A model generated the notes under the pieces. The model did no database searches and was not told where the DNA came from. It worked only from the letters and a program-made list of their open reading frames with translations. A stretch of 64,000 bases of DNA from Ascidiella aspersa (taxonomy: Eukaryota), in NCBI GenBank assembly GCA_963924565.1, contig OZ004615.1:2480001-2544000 (forward strand). The letters run 5' to 3'. This document shows, piece by piece, positions 198 to 63,783 of this stretch. Position numbers and translations under genes: made by a program. How positions within the stretch are numbered: the stretch's first letter is position 1; every line of letters begins with the position of its first letter.

Positions 198-3177
198 AGT
201 TAAATGATAGGTCGTTTAGGACTAAGGATTGTGAATTGTACTATTTTACTCAGTTTGTACCTCGGCTATCCTATAGTACTTTTAATTTACCGTTATTCGC
301 TTGTAATAGTAACGCTGTATTTTTGCAATGGGCTGCGTTTTTTGCGGTAGGTTTTTGGCCTTGAGCTGAATGTAGGGACATTTGTAGATCTGCGTTTGTA
401 CTTTTGCTATCCTACAGTACTTTTAATCTATTAATTCGCTTGTGAAATGTTGTTTATGCTGTGTTTGTTGCTGTAGGTTTTTGGCTTTGAACTATGGTTA
501 GATTGTATTACTGCGTTTGTACTTTGGTTATCTCACCGTACTTTTAATTTCATTTAATTCACGTGCAATGGTAGCGCTATTGTTTTGCTGGACGGGCTGA
601 GACGTTTTTTTGCGTTTTTTTTCTTTCGCAGCAAGGTTCTTGAACGTGTGAGATGTTTGCGTAAGTAAAGAAATTGCCAAGGACTGCATTTTCGCATTGT
701 ATAATTATAATAGGTACACGTTTTCGAGATTGATGGAAAGGCTATTATTTAGTTTATGTGTAATCCATATATAGTAATCCTACAAGGCAGGAAGTTAAAA
801 ACTAAAATAACTTTGTATAAAGACCGAATACTGCAGTACTACGTGTTGTTAAACTTTGTGGTTCTTTTTTCTGGACCGTGTGTTTGCAGTGCTTCCGCAG
901 TTTTCGTAAAGTTTGGAGAAATCATGCTTCGAACTTAAATAAATCTATCCAACCATTGCAGGAGGCGACCCAACCGAATCAAACGGCAATTTTTGGGCGC
1001 GGCCCATGTGTTAAGAAACACTGTATTACAAGCTCAAATAGTACTAAGTACAACATTTGATCAACTATTTGGCGGAGAATAGCAATTTAAAACTCGTATC
1101 GACTGCGAGTATTCATGTTAGTGTTTTCAACCGTGTATACATTATTGATTATTAAAAGTGGATATAACTTGAAGACTTCAGTTGTTGTTTGTATTTATAC
1201 GTCTTGTTTGCAACCTTGGCGATGCCTATGCAAATGTTCTTATACTTTTTTACCCCGGACCCCTAAAATATTTTTTTGCTTCGTGTGGACCACGGTAGGC
1301 AAGAAATTCTCAAAAATGACGTCATAAATTAACGTCACAATACAATAGACTTCAGAAATCTGCAGTTTTTGGTCCACAAAATGTGAAAATAGAATGAAGT
1401 CTAAATGCATTCAGTGCAAAAACGTTTTATTTTTAATTAAACCTCTTACTTTGAAAAATTGATTAGTTCTTAAATATGCACTAATATTTCGATTTAACCT
1501 TCCTGGACCCCTAAAACCAGTTAACGTACCCCAAGGGGTCCATGGACCCCCGTTTAAGAACCCCTGCTATAGTGTATTCCATTGCATAGCTTTGGTTTGC
1601 TTACTGGCATAGCTTTGCACGCGGCCTGAGAAATCGTGTTGCGTCCTTTTAATAATTAATAAACTTACGTAAGGGCTTATGCCAAGAACTCTAACCGCAT
1701 GACGCGAAAGCTCGTTTATATAAAGTCAAACAGTTTTCTTTAGTAATGAGGCCAAGATTAGGTAACTATAGGAGTCAGATTATTATCAAGTGTTTTAAGA
1801 GTTAAGTCACTGTTTTCGAATGACGTTGACGGGATATCTGTCTAGTTTTTTTGTTAAATCTTGACAGATAGATGATTCATTGTATGAGAAGCAAGTTTAC
1901 TCAGCAAATTTATCTGACGGTTTTGCGCACCTTAGAGGGAACACTGCACGCATCAAGTAATAATATCCACAGACAACGTAAAAAGAAAGGGGATTTTGAT
2001 GTCTTTTTCGAAATAGCAACTAAAATGCTCATGTCCTGTAAACTGTCTCGTTTTGCTAAAAACGCCCGTTGTCTTTAATGTTATCAAACTATCGCCCACA
2101 AAAGAAAATCGCTTTCGTTTATCGTGATTAGAAAAACAAAAAACCAAACCCTGCCAGATTGACTTATTTTTGTTTACATATTTATATAGATATATAGTTT
2201 TACGTGTTACATTTAAAATTACGGGATGCTTATAGTGGTCAGATTGTGAATGGTTAGATACTTTGAGTTTCAAAACTTTTTTTTTTGAATTGAAACTTCT
2301 ATCTATATTTTACACTTGAAGCATCGACACTATTAAATATGAGAACACATATTCTCACAGTATATTCTGACGTTGATAAGCTTTGTATTGACGGGACGTT
2401 TAATTAAAACTACGACCCTACATTTCTTCGAACTTTAGTCCGTATCGTACTGAAGCTATTCTGACGTCATTGTGCGCATTGTTTAATTGGAATGTCAAAC
2501 AAAGAGCCAGTATGGACTTTTTGATGATTCTATGGTTCATTCGTGCAGTAACTAATATTTAAAACCTTTAAAAAGTTATACTTTCAACTTTCTGTACGGT
2601 ACATTAAGGAAAAATTAATCGCTTCAAGATTTCAGAGATCACAAATAGTTAAGTACGAAAACTACCCAAATTGTTTATTAAGCCTAAATGTGCTTTAGCG
2701 ATAAAAAGAGCAATACTTTTGGCTATAACTATTTACATGAAAAGATTTCAAGTTAGAAAGCGCATTAGGAATGTCCGGTACTTTTTAGTGACATATCTAT
2801 GTCCGATATTTTGAACAAAGAATATCGCGATCCGATTCGATACTAAATGGGCGATTATTTTTGACCTAAAAATAAGTTATTTTACGAAAGTTTTGACCTA
2901 TTAGGAATGCATTGATTTAAGCAACGCATTGTTGCGTGAAGTACTATACTAGTGTCTAGTCACTTGTTTTAATGTTTCGGTGACAACCGGTAAAACAAAA
3001 ATCAGGTATTTTGGGGGCGTCTATGCAAGACTATTTTTGGATCAATTTTTTTGACAAAGATTTTGACAAACTTTGCCCTAACCTATAAATTGTGACAAAA
3101 TTTAGACTTTTTTGCCAAGTCAAAAAATATTCGCCCTAATTGTCTAACATCCCTACAACCTACCCCTAAGTATAGAG

Positions 3178-21662: not shown

Positions 21663-37816
<16,154 letters not shown>

Positions 37817-39787
37817 GTGACGTCACAATGGGCTGCAGGAGCTGAAAAGTGCTCTCCGGCGCGGCACGCCACCATGCGGTGGCTTTTTGCCGCTAAATGG
37901 CGCTAGAGTTTGCGATAAAGCGCAGCGGTGTGTTTTTGACTTGGGGACGGGTGGGATTAACGTTTCCAAGGCTATTTTTGGCAAATTTTTGCAATACTTA
38001 GCTCAACCACTCATTAAAATAGCAAATTAACCTATATTTCATATATATATTATTATTGTTTAAATTCAATTAACAAAATTTTGGAAAATATTTTTGTGAA
38101 CTGAACTCACGTGCCATAATAATTACGTCATCAACAAATTATCGAAGTCATACTTTTAAAAAAATGTGCCCCTGCTTTTTTGCGACACACCGCTGTTTTT
38201 TGTATCGTTTTGCCGCAGATGTTTTCTGTCTACCGACATGAAGCGCAAGCATATATAGCGGCTTTTTTTAAGCCGCGCTAAACCAAAACGTGTCGATGCG
38301 TAGTGGGAATATCAAAGTCCATATAAAAGTAGGTGGCATTTTGAATATCTTACATCTGATGTTAAAAATAAATAAAGAGTTATTCGAAACGTTCAAAATG
38401 ATACCTACTTCTGTATGGGCTTTGATATTCTTATTACGAATTATTCCAAACGTTTTAAAAATTCTTACTACTTCTAACTCCGATCTCCGACAATTATTAT
38501 GCTCCAAAGTTTAGTGTCGATACGCTTTGATTTTGAGATTTTTACTCTGAGGCATCGCGCGTAGGTCTCTATGACGAGACAATGCATCATTGTCGGCCTT
38601 TTTTAAACGGACGGGTTCGTATTGTATAAACGTACCTGCGTTACTTTGTATAGTTAATCTTTAACTAATTTTTAGGACTATTCTAAAGGTTGTAAATTAG
38701 CTGTTACTGCTCATAAAGAAATTGCGATTTTTTACAACCAAATATAGAAAACTCCAATAAATATTATTATTCAACTCTTATTTGAAATATATATTTTTTT
38801 AATTCCTATGGGTCTTCAATTAAAATGCACTGTTATTGTTTCCTATCAAAGCGTTAAGTATAATTATTTATGTTTTTATAAATATATTATTTTTATTTAT
38901 GGTGCAGTTCCCACAGAAAATCACCACTCTTAAAAAACTTTGCTGAACTTAGCATTGTTTTAGATAAAATTCTTCATATTGTTAAACAGTTCATCATGTG
39001 TTTCACTGCAGTTCGAATTATGTACGTAAATGTACGAAAATTAAAAGTAGAAACCTGTTCTACTACAGGATTTAAATTTTATCTTCTTTTACTATAACTT
39101 TTGACGAAAAATCACAATTTTTTTAGCTAACGATAGCTTTTATGTTATGTACAGCCAAAATTGTCTGTTGGTTGATTTTGTGTTCTTATGGCAGACTTTC
39201 GTCCTTTCTGCATTTTAGTATTTATTTTTCGTCCCTCCAAAGTGCAGAGTTTCTTTTTCTATTGTTTGTTTGTTGTCTGCGTTCTACTTTCTTTGTTTCA
39301 TCCCGTTCTTCACTTTGCGTTTTTCAAATCAGATGCACTATGACGTCACAGTACACGATGCAGTCCGCTGATTTTTGCCGCCGAATTCTTCATCGCCACG
39401 TGTAGCAAGCTGTCAGCACTTCAACTAAATTATCGCGTAGCTTTGGTTTCAATCACACATTGTACATCTCTGCATTCGCCAAAAACCCTTAGATGATTTT
39501 ACACTCTCTTCAAGCAAGCATTTGGGCGCCCTGAGTTATCAAAAGCAAAATTACAGCATTCACACATAACCTAAATATAAAAAAAAAAGTTGTTTTTTAG
39601 AAACTTTTTTTTTTTAGAAGATTCTGCTCAGTCATTTGGAAAACTAACTATGTTTACGGTATTCTGCAGACATAAATAATATGCTGTTGCTACCAGACAT
39701 ACTAAAAATGAGTTCTTCTGTTGATATTTGTTACAAATATATACCAATCTTTGTATATGGCCGTATTTGTCTAATTCTAAATAGAGG

Positions 39788-39917
39788 AATCAGGTGGCAC
39801 TGTATAAAGACAATTTGTATCTGATTCTCGACAAGCTTTCGCACAACCGTGCTTCATCAGGTCAAAGTATGATGAAGTACGGTTGGGCGAAAGCTTGTCG
39901 AGAATCAAATACAATTT
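39788..39917. mobile_element. Fold-back Penelope-like pLTR remnant (other copies: 24113-24230, ~35670-35709 with 36449-36530, 50087-50175, ~16035)
   Basis: Shared unit: hammerhead followed by AATACAA(A)TTGTCTTTAT..AGTGCCACCTGATT, arranged as inverted pairs with the tails facing outward. Confidence 0.65.
39827..39866 (-). ncRNA. Minimal type I hammerhead ribozyme motif (Penelope-like), core intact
   Basis: Minus strand reads UUUGAC CUGAUGA A GCAC-GGUU-GUGC GAAA GC UU GUCGAG: full core, 4-bp stem II, palindromic AGCU stem III, stem I pairs. Confidence 0.8.
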
Positions 39918-41334
39918 GAAATATATTCCAGAAGAAGTTATTTTTAGTAGGCCATTCTGCAGATAATTCTGGCACGAGAGCCAATCATTTTAAAGATTTG
40001 GAGAAAAATAGATTTCGCCTATTTGATTAAACCAGGGGTTCTTAAAATGTGATCCGCGGAACCTCGGGTGTACCTGAACTAGTTTTAGGGTGTCCATGAA
40101 GGCCTAATTAAAATCTTTGTGTATAATTTATAAATGCGCTTTGGCGCCTTCTCCTTAAATGTATTTAGACTTTTACTTTCACTTTAAAAATAACAGGTTT
40201 CTCAAGTCTCATCAATTTATGTCGCCATCTTCAAAAATTCTATGCCGACCATGGTCCACGCGAACCAAAATAAATGTTAAAATAATTTTGGGACCCCTGG
40301 ATTCAACAGTATTTTTTTATCACAGTTCATTAAACCCAACTTTTATGCTAACTTGGTTAAAAGATTCCGAGAAAATGTCTAATTTTAAGCATATTTTATA
40401 TCTTACAGTGCAAATTGCTTCAGTTTTTTTATGTTTTTAGTGCACTATCTGGTTTTTATTAGACAACCATTCTTTCTTGTTCTTTTGCGACAAAATTTAT
40501 TGTGACCATAAATGCCAGAAATGGGCAACATTATTTCCATGAAAAATGATGTTATTATAATAGTTTATTCCTACAACATAAACGCACAATGGTATAATGT
40601 AGCAACGACAGTCATCAATTTTGAAGCATGTATTTCAACAACAACAACAAAAATGTCTTCGATTTTTTATCGTGTCGTTTATATTTAAATGCGCGCTACA
40701 CGTTTCCAAAGGTGAAACAGCACAGTATTTTTACATTGTTGCCATGTGCTAATTCGGTCGCACCATTTAGTCACAAACTGCAATTGGTTTCGCAACTTCG
40801 GTTACAGTTCATATACTATGAATAAAAAGACCGATCATCCTTTGACGGGTTTTCATGTGATTGTTGGTTAGACTATAGTATTCTGCAAGTTATTAAATTG
40901 TGTTTTGTAAAATATAAAATTAACAAGCTCTTATGGTTCTGTGGTAAATGGAGGATTGAGATGAAAGAAAAAGACAAAAGATGTTGCAAAAATATATCGA
41001 CTTGCGATTTTATAAATAAAAAGCTTTGTAGAATACAATTTTATGATTTTTTTTCGTTTATGAACAAAGTTACAACGTTATTCAGTTTCCCATATGACGA
41101 CTTAAGTTCTTTCCAAAAACAAGTAAACTCACCCTCAGGCGTTAGAATTTTCAAACTTTGAAACACATTTTTCTTCGCGAGCAAACAACAGTTTAAAGAC
41201 GAAGACATCTCTAACCTCGTAACTTACATATTAAGTAACCTTTCGCCATGAGACAAAAGCGACCAAACCAAATACCCAAACGTGCTCTGTGTGAACATCT
41301 TCGTGTTGTCATTGTGTGTGTTAATGTTATTGAC

Positions 41335-45493: not shown

Positions 45494-61648
<16,155 letters not shown>

Positions 61649-63580: not shown

Positions 63581-63783
63581 GGCGCTGGTCTAGAATCCTA
63601 CCACAATGAAACACCATTTGGGTTAGGGTGCGGGTTAGCGTTTGGGTTAAGGTGGGTCAAGTATTATTATTAAACAAAGAATATAATAATACTTGACCCA
63701 CCCACACCCAAACGCTAACCCGCAACCTAACTCAAATTTTGTGCGTTGATTTTAGAACTGTGGTAGGATTCTAGACCAGCGCC
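63581..63783. mobile_element. Fully palindromic MITE with GGTTAG-type subterminal motifs (partial copies at 63292 and 63429)
   Basis: GGCGCTGGTCTAGAATCCTACCACA ... TGTGGTAGGATTCTAGACCAGCGCC, TSD CATAGTTG(G). Confidence 0.88.

Follow-up and report, generated by a model that had tools for sequence, protein, structure and literature searches.

The sequence at positions 39746-39918 of a 64-kb stretch of the Ascidiella aspersa genome (the whole of the DNA analysed, hereafter the window) is ordinary mobile DNA, namely the cut-short, mirror-image end of a Penelope element and one of hundreds of such stubs. Judged by its sequence relationships, the repeated unit represents the pLTR, or 3' end, of a Penelope retroelement of Neptune-like type. 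We regard it as very probable that the locus represents a 5'-truncated, head-to-head pLTR insertion, a likely dead end that the reverse transcriptase (RT) and GIY-YIG nuclease of the element itself probably produced in a single event at this place. The hammerhead type and the insertion layout encountered here are both already published.

The insertion at 39746-39918 and its hammerhead motif

The insertion spans 173 bp and consists of two arms joined head-to-head, with boundaries based on the target-site duplication and on alignment to a natural copy of the family (L039). The long arm (39746-39870, minus strand) extends from -38 to +88 in family coordinates, which take the predicted hammerhead cut as origin, and contains the hammerhead, the 3' end and a tail of ~35 nt (39746-39781, minus strand), the latter being the stretch between the two preferred 3' ends of the family at +52 and +87. 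The short arm (39870-39918, plus strand) covers positions -27 to +22 as judged from the alignment to L039, and its 3' end at +22 falls short of the usual +52 or +87. The arms are enclosed by an 11-bp duplication of the target (left copy 39735-39745, right copy 39919-39929, both given on the plus strand), the two copies of which are identical in 10 of 11 bases. Further out, 39700-39720 and 39929-39949 form an inverted pair (19/21), so that the insertion went into the centre of a small palindrome, of which no further copy was found among the retrieved loci. The junction of the two arms occurs a single time in the 308-Mb genome with one mismatch allowed.

The initial annotation had described this place as a fold-back of ~130 bp carrying back-to-back hammerhead ribozymes. 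The fold-back itself was borne out, as 39788-39917 folds with energies of -72.9 / -70.5 kcal/mol (z -14.2 / -15.7), which is far beyond chance and was equalled by none of 200 shuffles. The sequence is indeed a near-palindrome, but its extent had to be revised, since the insertion comprises 39746-39918 with a left arm that is 40 nt longer and includes the tail.

Within the long arm, a minimal type I hammerhead lies at 39827-39866 on the minus strand, with core residue C3 at 39860, the palindrome AGCU and U17. Read from 39866 to 39827, it is composed of the 5' strand of stem I (UUUGAC), CUGAUGA, an additional A behind A9, stem II (GCAC/GUGC) closing a 4-nt loop, GAAA, GC, UU and the 3' strand of stem I (GUCGAG). 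No defect is seen in the 11 core bases or in either stem on this strand, and the cut is predicted to occur between 39833 and 39832. A generic hammerhead descriptor matched nowhere else in the 64 kb; an Rfam scan of the window returned no hammerhead family at E-values up to 10, only weak matches to microRNA hairpins. An 18-nt match at 26376, which has neither stem II nor tail around it, was taken as chance. On its own, the hammerhead monomer folds into stems I and II as drawn, and with -10.8 kcal/mol (z -0.34) it is not unusually stable.

The motif features agree with the assignment to a Penelope-type minimal type I hammerhead with a palindromic 4-nt stem III. In its available text, the study of metazoan Penelope-like elements by Cervera and De la Pena 2014 (PMC4209133) describes the same type I form with an extra base between A9 and 10.1, a G10.1-C11.1 pair and a palindromic 15.1-16.1, and likewise reports mostly solo copies with some pairs on opposite strands. 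Differences concern stem II, which measures 4 bp here versus 7-8 bp in Schistosoma in that text, and the palindrome, which is AGCU here whereas five other Penelope-type motifs of this genome have ACGU.

The copy on the plus strand (39870-39918) starts only at U4; C3 and the 5' strand of stem I are missing from it, and its stem II is altered at two places. By its sequence it is not a hammerhead, and the insertion holds one hammerhead only. Of the back-to-back ribozymes, the minus-strand member thus stands and the plus-strand one does not; the term was an overstatement, as the halves lie on opposite strands, one of them is incomplete, and a tandem dimer is impossible.

The fold-back hairpin is predicted to bury the hammerhead by pairing the whole motif with its antisense (-70.5 versus -10.8 kcal/mol). 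Because the halves lie on opposite strands and this pairing is predicted, the hammerhead is probably silent in read-through RNA of the stub, in which it would be inherited cargo. As for the parent RNA, cutting after GCUU is predicted to require either a dimer or the help of protein. Minimal hammerheads show no cleavage as monomers and weak cleavage as dimers, according to the accessible portions of PMC4209133 and of a review (PMC6765202). When two monomers were folded together, they paired through stem II into a duplex instead of the hammerhead dimer, in a nearest-neighbour calculation that cannot score the core and was given no weight in either direction. We also weighed whether 39827-39866 might be an active ribozyme used by the host, and consider this extremely improbable: the 11 core bases and both stems are all in place, yet their intactness reflects the youth of a copy that is 97-98% identical to many others, and both the predicted burial in the hairpin and the absence of monomer cleavage in minimal hammerheads (PMC4209133, as far as its available text goes) argue against it.

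RNA of the family was seen in one raw run carrying the same species label, 6% of which was read. It yielded 432 reads on L039, from both strands, and 59% of them continued into unrelated sequence, the pattern to be expected if stubs are transcribed within host RNAs. Of the 84 places that differed in the RNA, 38 were A>G or T>C changes, compared with 7 of 29 in one DNA run and 5 of 24 in another; for ten of the A>G sites, no more than one of 40-65 genomic arms had G. Changes of this kind cluster in the RNA, and not in genomic copies, at L039:2039-2119 and at 2155, and include the base paired with core U4. These data suggest A-to-I editing of fold-back transcripts, although the RNA comes from another individual and some of the A>G reads lie on an unexpected strand.

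The family, its coding copies and its clade

The window corresponds to C9:2480001-2544000 of the genome (308 Mb in 75 contigs), which was searched for two pieces of the family. A 28-nt core gave 369 exact copies and a 26-nt piece of the 3' end 340 exact matches, and the reversed control gave none in either case. Sixty evenly chosen 10-kb stretches contained 4 loci at E < 0.001 (control 0), which suggests roughly two thousand family loci in the genome, with a wide error.

Coding candidates amount to 39 for GIY-YIG and 13 for RT, compared with the 369 exact cores. Walking upstream from the hammerhead unit of one copy (L018) revealed a GIY-YIG frame, and at 21 of 26 distinct GIY-YIG-anchored places, counted after four duplicate loci had been dropped, the unit follows the frame in the same sense. 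One locus, L037, contains an open stretch of 488 aa (1308-2774, minus strand; P0001) with matches to both RVT_1 (E 3e-10) and GIY-YIG (E 2e-7); the hammerhead lies ~190 nt past the stop, and the copy has an inverted tailed arm and a 12-bp duplication. Since a GIY-YIG frame and RT precede the unit in the longer copies, we identify it as a Penelope pLTR. The suspected link to Penelope coding sequence was thus found elsewhere in the genome, and the description of the family as dispersed and RNA-derived was likewise upheld. The window itself, as had been stated, contains no Penelope RT or GIY-YIG coding frame, and its family copies are all stubs. In searches that scored the best candidates only, no full-length intact copy of the family was found, just truncated or decayed ones, and neither a tandem parent with two hammerheads nor RNA beyond +87 was seen in the copies found.

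Motifs of P0001 point to the Neptune clade. A CX2-5CxxC linker is located at residues 349-357, between RT and nuclease, and recurs in 103 of 104 listed homologues that contain the YIG motif. In the nuclease, a CxxC (residues 393-396) sits between the two halves of the GIY-YIG motif, with histidines downstream (CCHH-type). The combination of this linker and a CCHH-type GIY-YIG defines Neptune in the available text of PMC8557442, and the likeness, like the assignment of the family, is one of motif only. The nearest database proteins to P0001 come from turtle and metagenomes, share ~50% identity and are not named as elements; the turtle proteins rank ahead of a Styela protein at 38%, which might reflect patchy sampling or horizontal transfer.

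Among the other Penelope families of the genome, in which frames measure 815-880 aa, two possess a minimal hammerhead in each terminal repeat, and full-length partial-tandem copies with direct pLTRs are present. The other families keep the core at the same position of the element with wholly different stems, as found by a descriptor that itself demanded pairing. A head-to-tail array of 2671-bp Penelope units with frames of 816-843 aa (L118-L121; C9:23.48-23.50 Mb, C4 and C3) appears to carry the U3/A8 hammerhead variant described in the available text of PMC4209133. Minimal hammerheads with an ACGU palindrome come in at least five other types (L115, L117, L123, L131, L133 and L134), most of which adjoin Penelope frames. 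Two further families, B and C, gave 169 and 225 exact pattern matches, respectively, and both have two 3' ends ~30-35 nt apart.

Conservation of the hammerhead was judged from 91 arms not chosen by their core, 55 of which are young copies picked by the exact 3' pattern. The mismatch to the majority base was 3.1% in the core (11 positions), 5.5% in stem I and 4.1% in stem II, against 7.3% and 8.5% in the flanks of the same arms, where alignment edges raise the values. An intact core was present in 69 of the 91 arms, and the variants common to at least 10 copies (-38, +9, +10 and +45) are all located outside the ribozyme. No compensatory changes were evident in the stems among the 91 arms. Core conservation, which had been proposed as a check, is therefore modestly better than that of the flanks and is not accompanied by compensatory change, and we regard it as mild sequence-level support for the hammerhead.

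Three further places in the window had been assigned to the same family. Membership was confirmed for all three, whereas an intact hammerhead was found in none. The older head-to-head stub at 24112-24230 has a broken hammerhead core. A second older stub (35683-36531) consists of an inverted short fragment (35683-35720) and a sense arm (36448-36531) separated by a 605-bp insert. The third, a head-to-head stub at 50050-50182 that is likewise older, retains 3' ends only, with the tail on its left arm and not on its right, and no hammerhead. Matches by nhmmer had E-values of 3e-13 for the arm at 36450, which has one mismatch in stem II, and of 4e-12 for the arm at 24147. A close subfamily around the copy at 36450 was considered; its best other matches are 81-94% identical, which indicates an old copy instead. 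The 605-bp insert (35742-36346) is unrelated to the family, carries 14-bp terminal inverted repeats and an 8-bp duplication (7/8 identical), and is presumably hAT-like. Elsewhere in the window, cyclic-nucleotide-binding exons followed by kinase-like starts form two similar sets on the plus strand (29506-30207, 51379-51786 and 53833-54372) and probably belong to tandem cGMP-dependent kinase genes. Two near-perfect hairpins with weak Rfam microRNA matches (32435-32561 and 63632-63721) are probably small inverted-repeat elements.

Insertion architecture and the origin of the fold-backs

The architecture of the insertions was examined in the first 100 of the 340 exact 3'-pattern matches (contigs C1, C2 and part of C3), which correspond to 80 insertions. 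The 100 arms fall into two groups by their 3' ends, 54 at +45 to +60 and 46 at +75 to +87; from these groups (+52 and +87), the tail amounts to ~35 nt. The reference ends at +87, and flanks differ past that point. Duplications of at least 8 bp enclose 54 of the 80 insertions and those of at least 10 bp 44 of them (mode 12, range 8-14 bp), compared with 1.6% and 0.2%, respectively, for shuffled flanks. The duplicated targets are 80% A+T. In 26 of the 80 insertions no duplication of at least 8 bp was detected, in some through missed boundaries.

A head-to-head inverted arrangement was called by script in 41 of the 80 insertions and in 5 more on second look, so that the inverted pLTR layout expected in the initial annotation holds for at least 41 of them. 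In 35 of these 41, a long 3' end is paired with a short one, i.e., the tail is present on one arm only. The junction strings are distinct in 38 of 41; the one that recurs, in 4 of the 41, lies within 1.6-2.2 kb of shared flank. At six places on C2 (L264, L275, L276, L279, L283 and L284), one fold-back stub resides in a shared repeat of at least 1.6-2.2 kb that is 90-99% identical, and it is carried passively by this larger repeat. As for their 5' ends, 70 of the 100 arms extend no further upstream than -60, and 13 are long enough to include part of the coding frame. Only 8 of 100 start within -7 to +3, which is not clearly above background, and for this reason cleavage apparently does not define the ends of the copies.

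The same layout is known from EN+ Penelope-like elements (PMC8557442, legend of Fig. 2; Pen2a/Pen2 of Adineta vaga, PMC3846280), whose accessible descriptions include head-to-head inverted pLTRs with a one-sided tail, a duplication of ~10 bp, strong 5' truncation and an RT with a C-terminal GIY-YIG, as well as an inverted 5'-truncated copy with a tail of 30-40 bp. In contrast to these elements, the arms of the stubs studied here are shorter than 130 nt with no coding sequence left, the duplications centre on 12 bp, and no full-length copy was found. Poseidon of the green anole (Frangieh 2024, PMC11167929) also has two preferred 3' ends with the tail as the gap between them, and A+T-rich targets. 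It belongs to another clade, and a pile-up of 5' ends near the hammerhead is not mentioned in the available text, supplements aside.

Since the junctions are nearly all different and the one at 39746-39918 is unique, the fold-backs were likely made afresh at each insertion rather than copied as a MITE-like family. We propose a scheme of two nicks that draws on in vitro work with the anole element. The nuclease would nick both target strands ~12 bp apart, and each nick would serve as primer for a copy of the element RNA, as a rule with the first copy starting at +52 and the second at +87, or the reverse. The two copies would stop early, and joining of their ends head-to-head would generate the palindrome. 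In the available text of PMC11167929, the anole protein nicks and extends both target strands in vitro and prefers A+T-rich DNA, copying starts at two internal sites with the tail as the gap between them, and the hammerhead cuts only with protein and is dispensable for insertion in vitro.

The initial annotation had seen a non-autonomous family with the look of a MITE; a family of this kind that spreads as a unit is not supported. DNA-transposon MITEs have fixed ends, and a MITE with fixed terminal inverted repeats and a fixed duplication was rejected in view of the uneven ends, the duplications of 8-14 bp and the 38 of 41 distinct junctions. A fold-back family that multiplies as one unit by way of its own RNA or DNA, be it MITE-like or retrozyme-like, would fit the 70 of 100 arms starting at or downstream of -60 with only 13 reaching the coding frame, as well as the junction that recurs in 4 of 41 inverted insertions, and a preprint derives animal retrozymes from pLTRs (10.64898/2026.07.22.740005, available part). 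The recurring junction, however, travels with its 1.6-2.2 kb of flank, while the others differ and the present one is unique. Non-LTR retrozymes (PMC7229834; 10.64898/2026.07.22.740005) resemble the family in being non-coding and pLTR-related with a type I hammerhead, but as far as described there they are defined by head-to-tail tandem arrays; apart from short local duplications, the sampled copies are solo or head-to-head stubs with unique junctions, and a retrozyme was likewise rejected. Taken together, we judge copying as a non-autonomous unit to be very unlikely.

Less remote, though still unlikely, is that the stubs share the Penelope origin proposed above and that the palindrome arose by self-priming and folding back of a single cDNA, or by copying of antisense RNA, instead of from two nicks. 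Self-priming has been proposed for head-to-head junctions in the available text of PMC3846280, and several junctions of our sample lie at short palindromic words near -38 and -4; for antisense RNA, a TATA-like word is present at -42 to -35 of the antisense strand. Yet in 35 of 41 pairs each arm has a different 3' end and both arms abut the duplication, which fits two priming events, the arms are often unequal in length with extra letters at the junction, and the anole protein extends both strands in vitro (PMC11167929, available text). Priming from both nicked strands is in keeping with the two 3' ends, with a tail on one side only and with the duplication of 12 bp, and the stubs are a record of Penelope insertion, a process only partly worked out. 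Palindromes of this kind get misfiled as MITEs or microRNA hairpins.

Upstream ends of the arms and a possible start of the template RNA

The 5' ends of the arms pile up just upstream of the hammerhead. Thirty-five of the 100 arms begin at -44 to -34, i.e., 6-16 nt upstream of the core, compared with 3 in the equally A+T-rich stretch from -60 to -45, and the long arm of the insertion at 39746-39918 begins inside this zone. With identical junctions removed, 33 of 90 arms start within -42 to -34 at a per-position rate 8.5 times that of the rest, the zone having been chosen after seeing the data. Eight solo copies, once duplicated target letters were removed, start at -35, -35, -36, -36, -37, -37, -39 and -42 (nine were counted, two of them at -42). 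Loose ends in contigs of two public DNA runs, one of which may be the source of this assembly, fall on these bases too, 14, 13, 10 and 9 nt upstream of C3. The zone begins at the A of TCATTT, 14 nt upstream of the core, a word that we take to be initiator-like. A TATA box 30 nt upstream of -42 is absent in this family.

A prediction of start sites in families B and C was written before looking. In family B, 8 of 49 arms start at -13 to -10 from C3 and 4 of them on the base predicted from the TATA box (ratio 5.7, p 0.0002, with the width of the window chosen afterwards); the second batch alone (2 of 23 arms, p 0.16) was not significant. The prediction failed for family C, in which 4 of 47 arms fall into the predicted zone (ratio 1.2, p 0.44) and a cluster at -54 to -60 was not counted, as it stems from the alignment breaking off at a T-run. 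In ~6% of one ordinary RNA-seq run, read ends accumulated neither at the predicted cut nor in the pile-up zone. D. virilis has a 75-bp intron ending at helix I (PMC4209133), and its start site precedes this intron by 46 bp (PMC2377424), both from the available text; the start is thus not next to the hammerhead.

Two readings of the pile-up were weighed. The template RNA may begin 6-16 nt upstream of the core, which would be why many copies stop at that point; we assign this a little less than an even chance. Alternatively, the pile-up may mark a stop, caused by the RT falling off once it has melted stem I or by nuclease trimming of the new DNA at ATT, or it may reflect apparent ends displaced by A+T-rich microhomology, and this is about as probable. 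The downstream limit of the zone (-35) coincides with the base of stem I, and its upstream limit at -42 with ATT, the trinucleotide preferred by the anole nuclease (PMC11167929, available text), and the solo copies, freed of duplicated target letters, start at -35 to -42; the distant start in D. virilis and the lack of a TATA box 30 nt upstream of -42 also favour a stop. A+T-richness, however, is shared by the stretch from -60 to -45 with its 3 ends against 35, the ends stop sharply at the A of TCATTT, the peak in family B coincides with a base predicted beforehand from the TATA box, and family C has stem I yet no pile-up.

If the template RNA does begin at the pile-up, the stubs may tentatively be viewed as run-off products, for which the RT would start inside the 5' pLTR and copy, on one target strand or on both, merely the 90-130 nt that separate it from the first base of the RNA; the pile-up would then map the start, and the solo hammerheads of animals would be a by-product. 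No paper on the pile-up as a start-site marker was found in our search, which lay outside most subscription journals and the supplements of PMC11167929. Run-off, if true, would mean that solo minimal hammerheads, reported by the thousands from animal genomes, are built into internal initiation rather than the outcome of random truncation. A pile-up that marks the RNA start would also explain why solo hammerheads outnumber coding copies ~10:1 (369 cores versus 39 GIY-YIG candidates), and would offer a cheap way to locate Penelope promoters.
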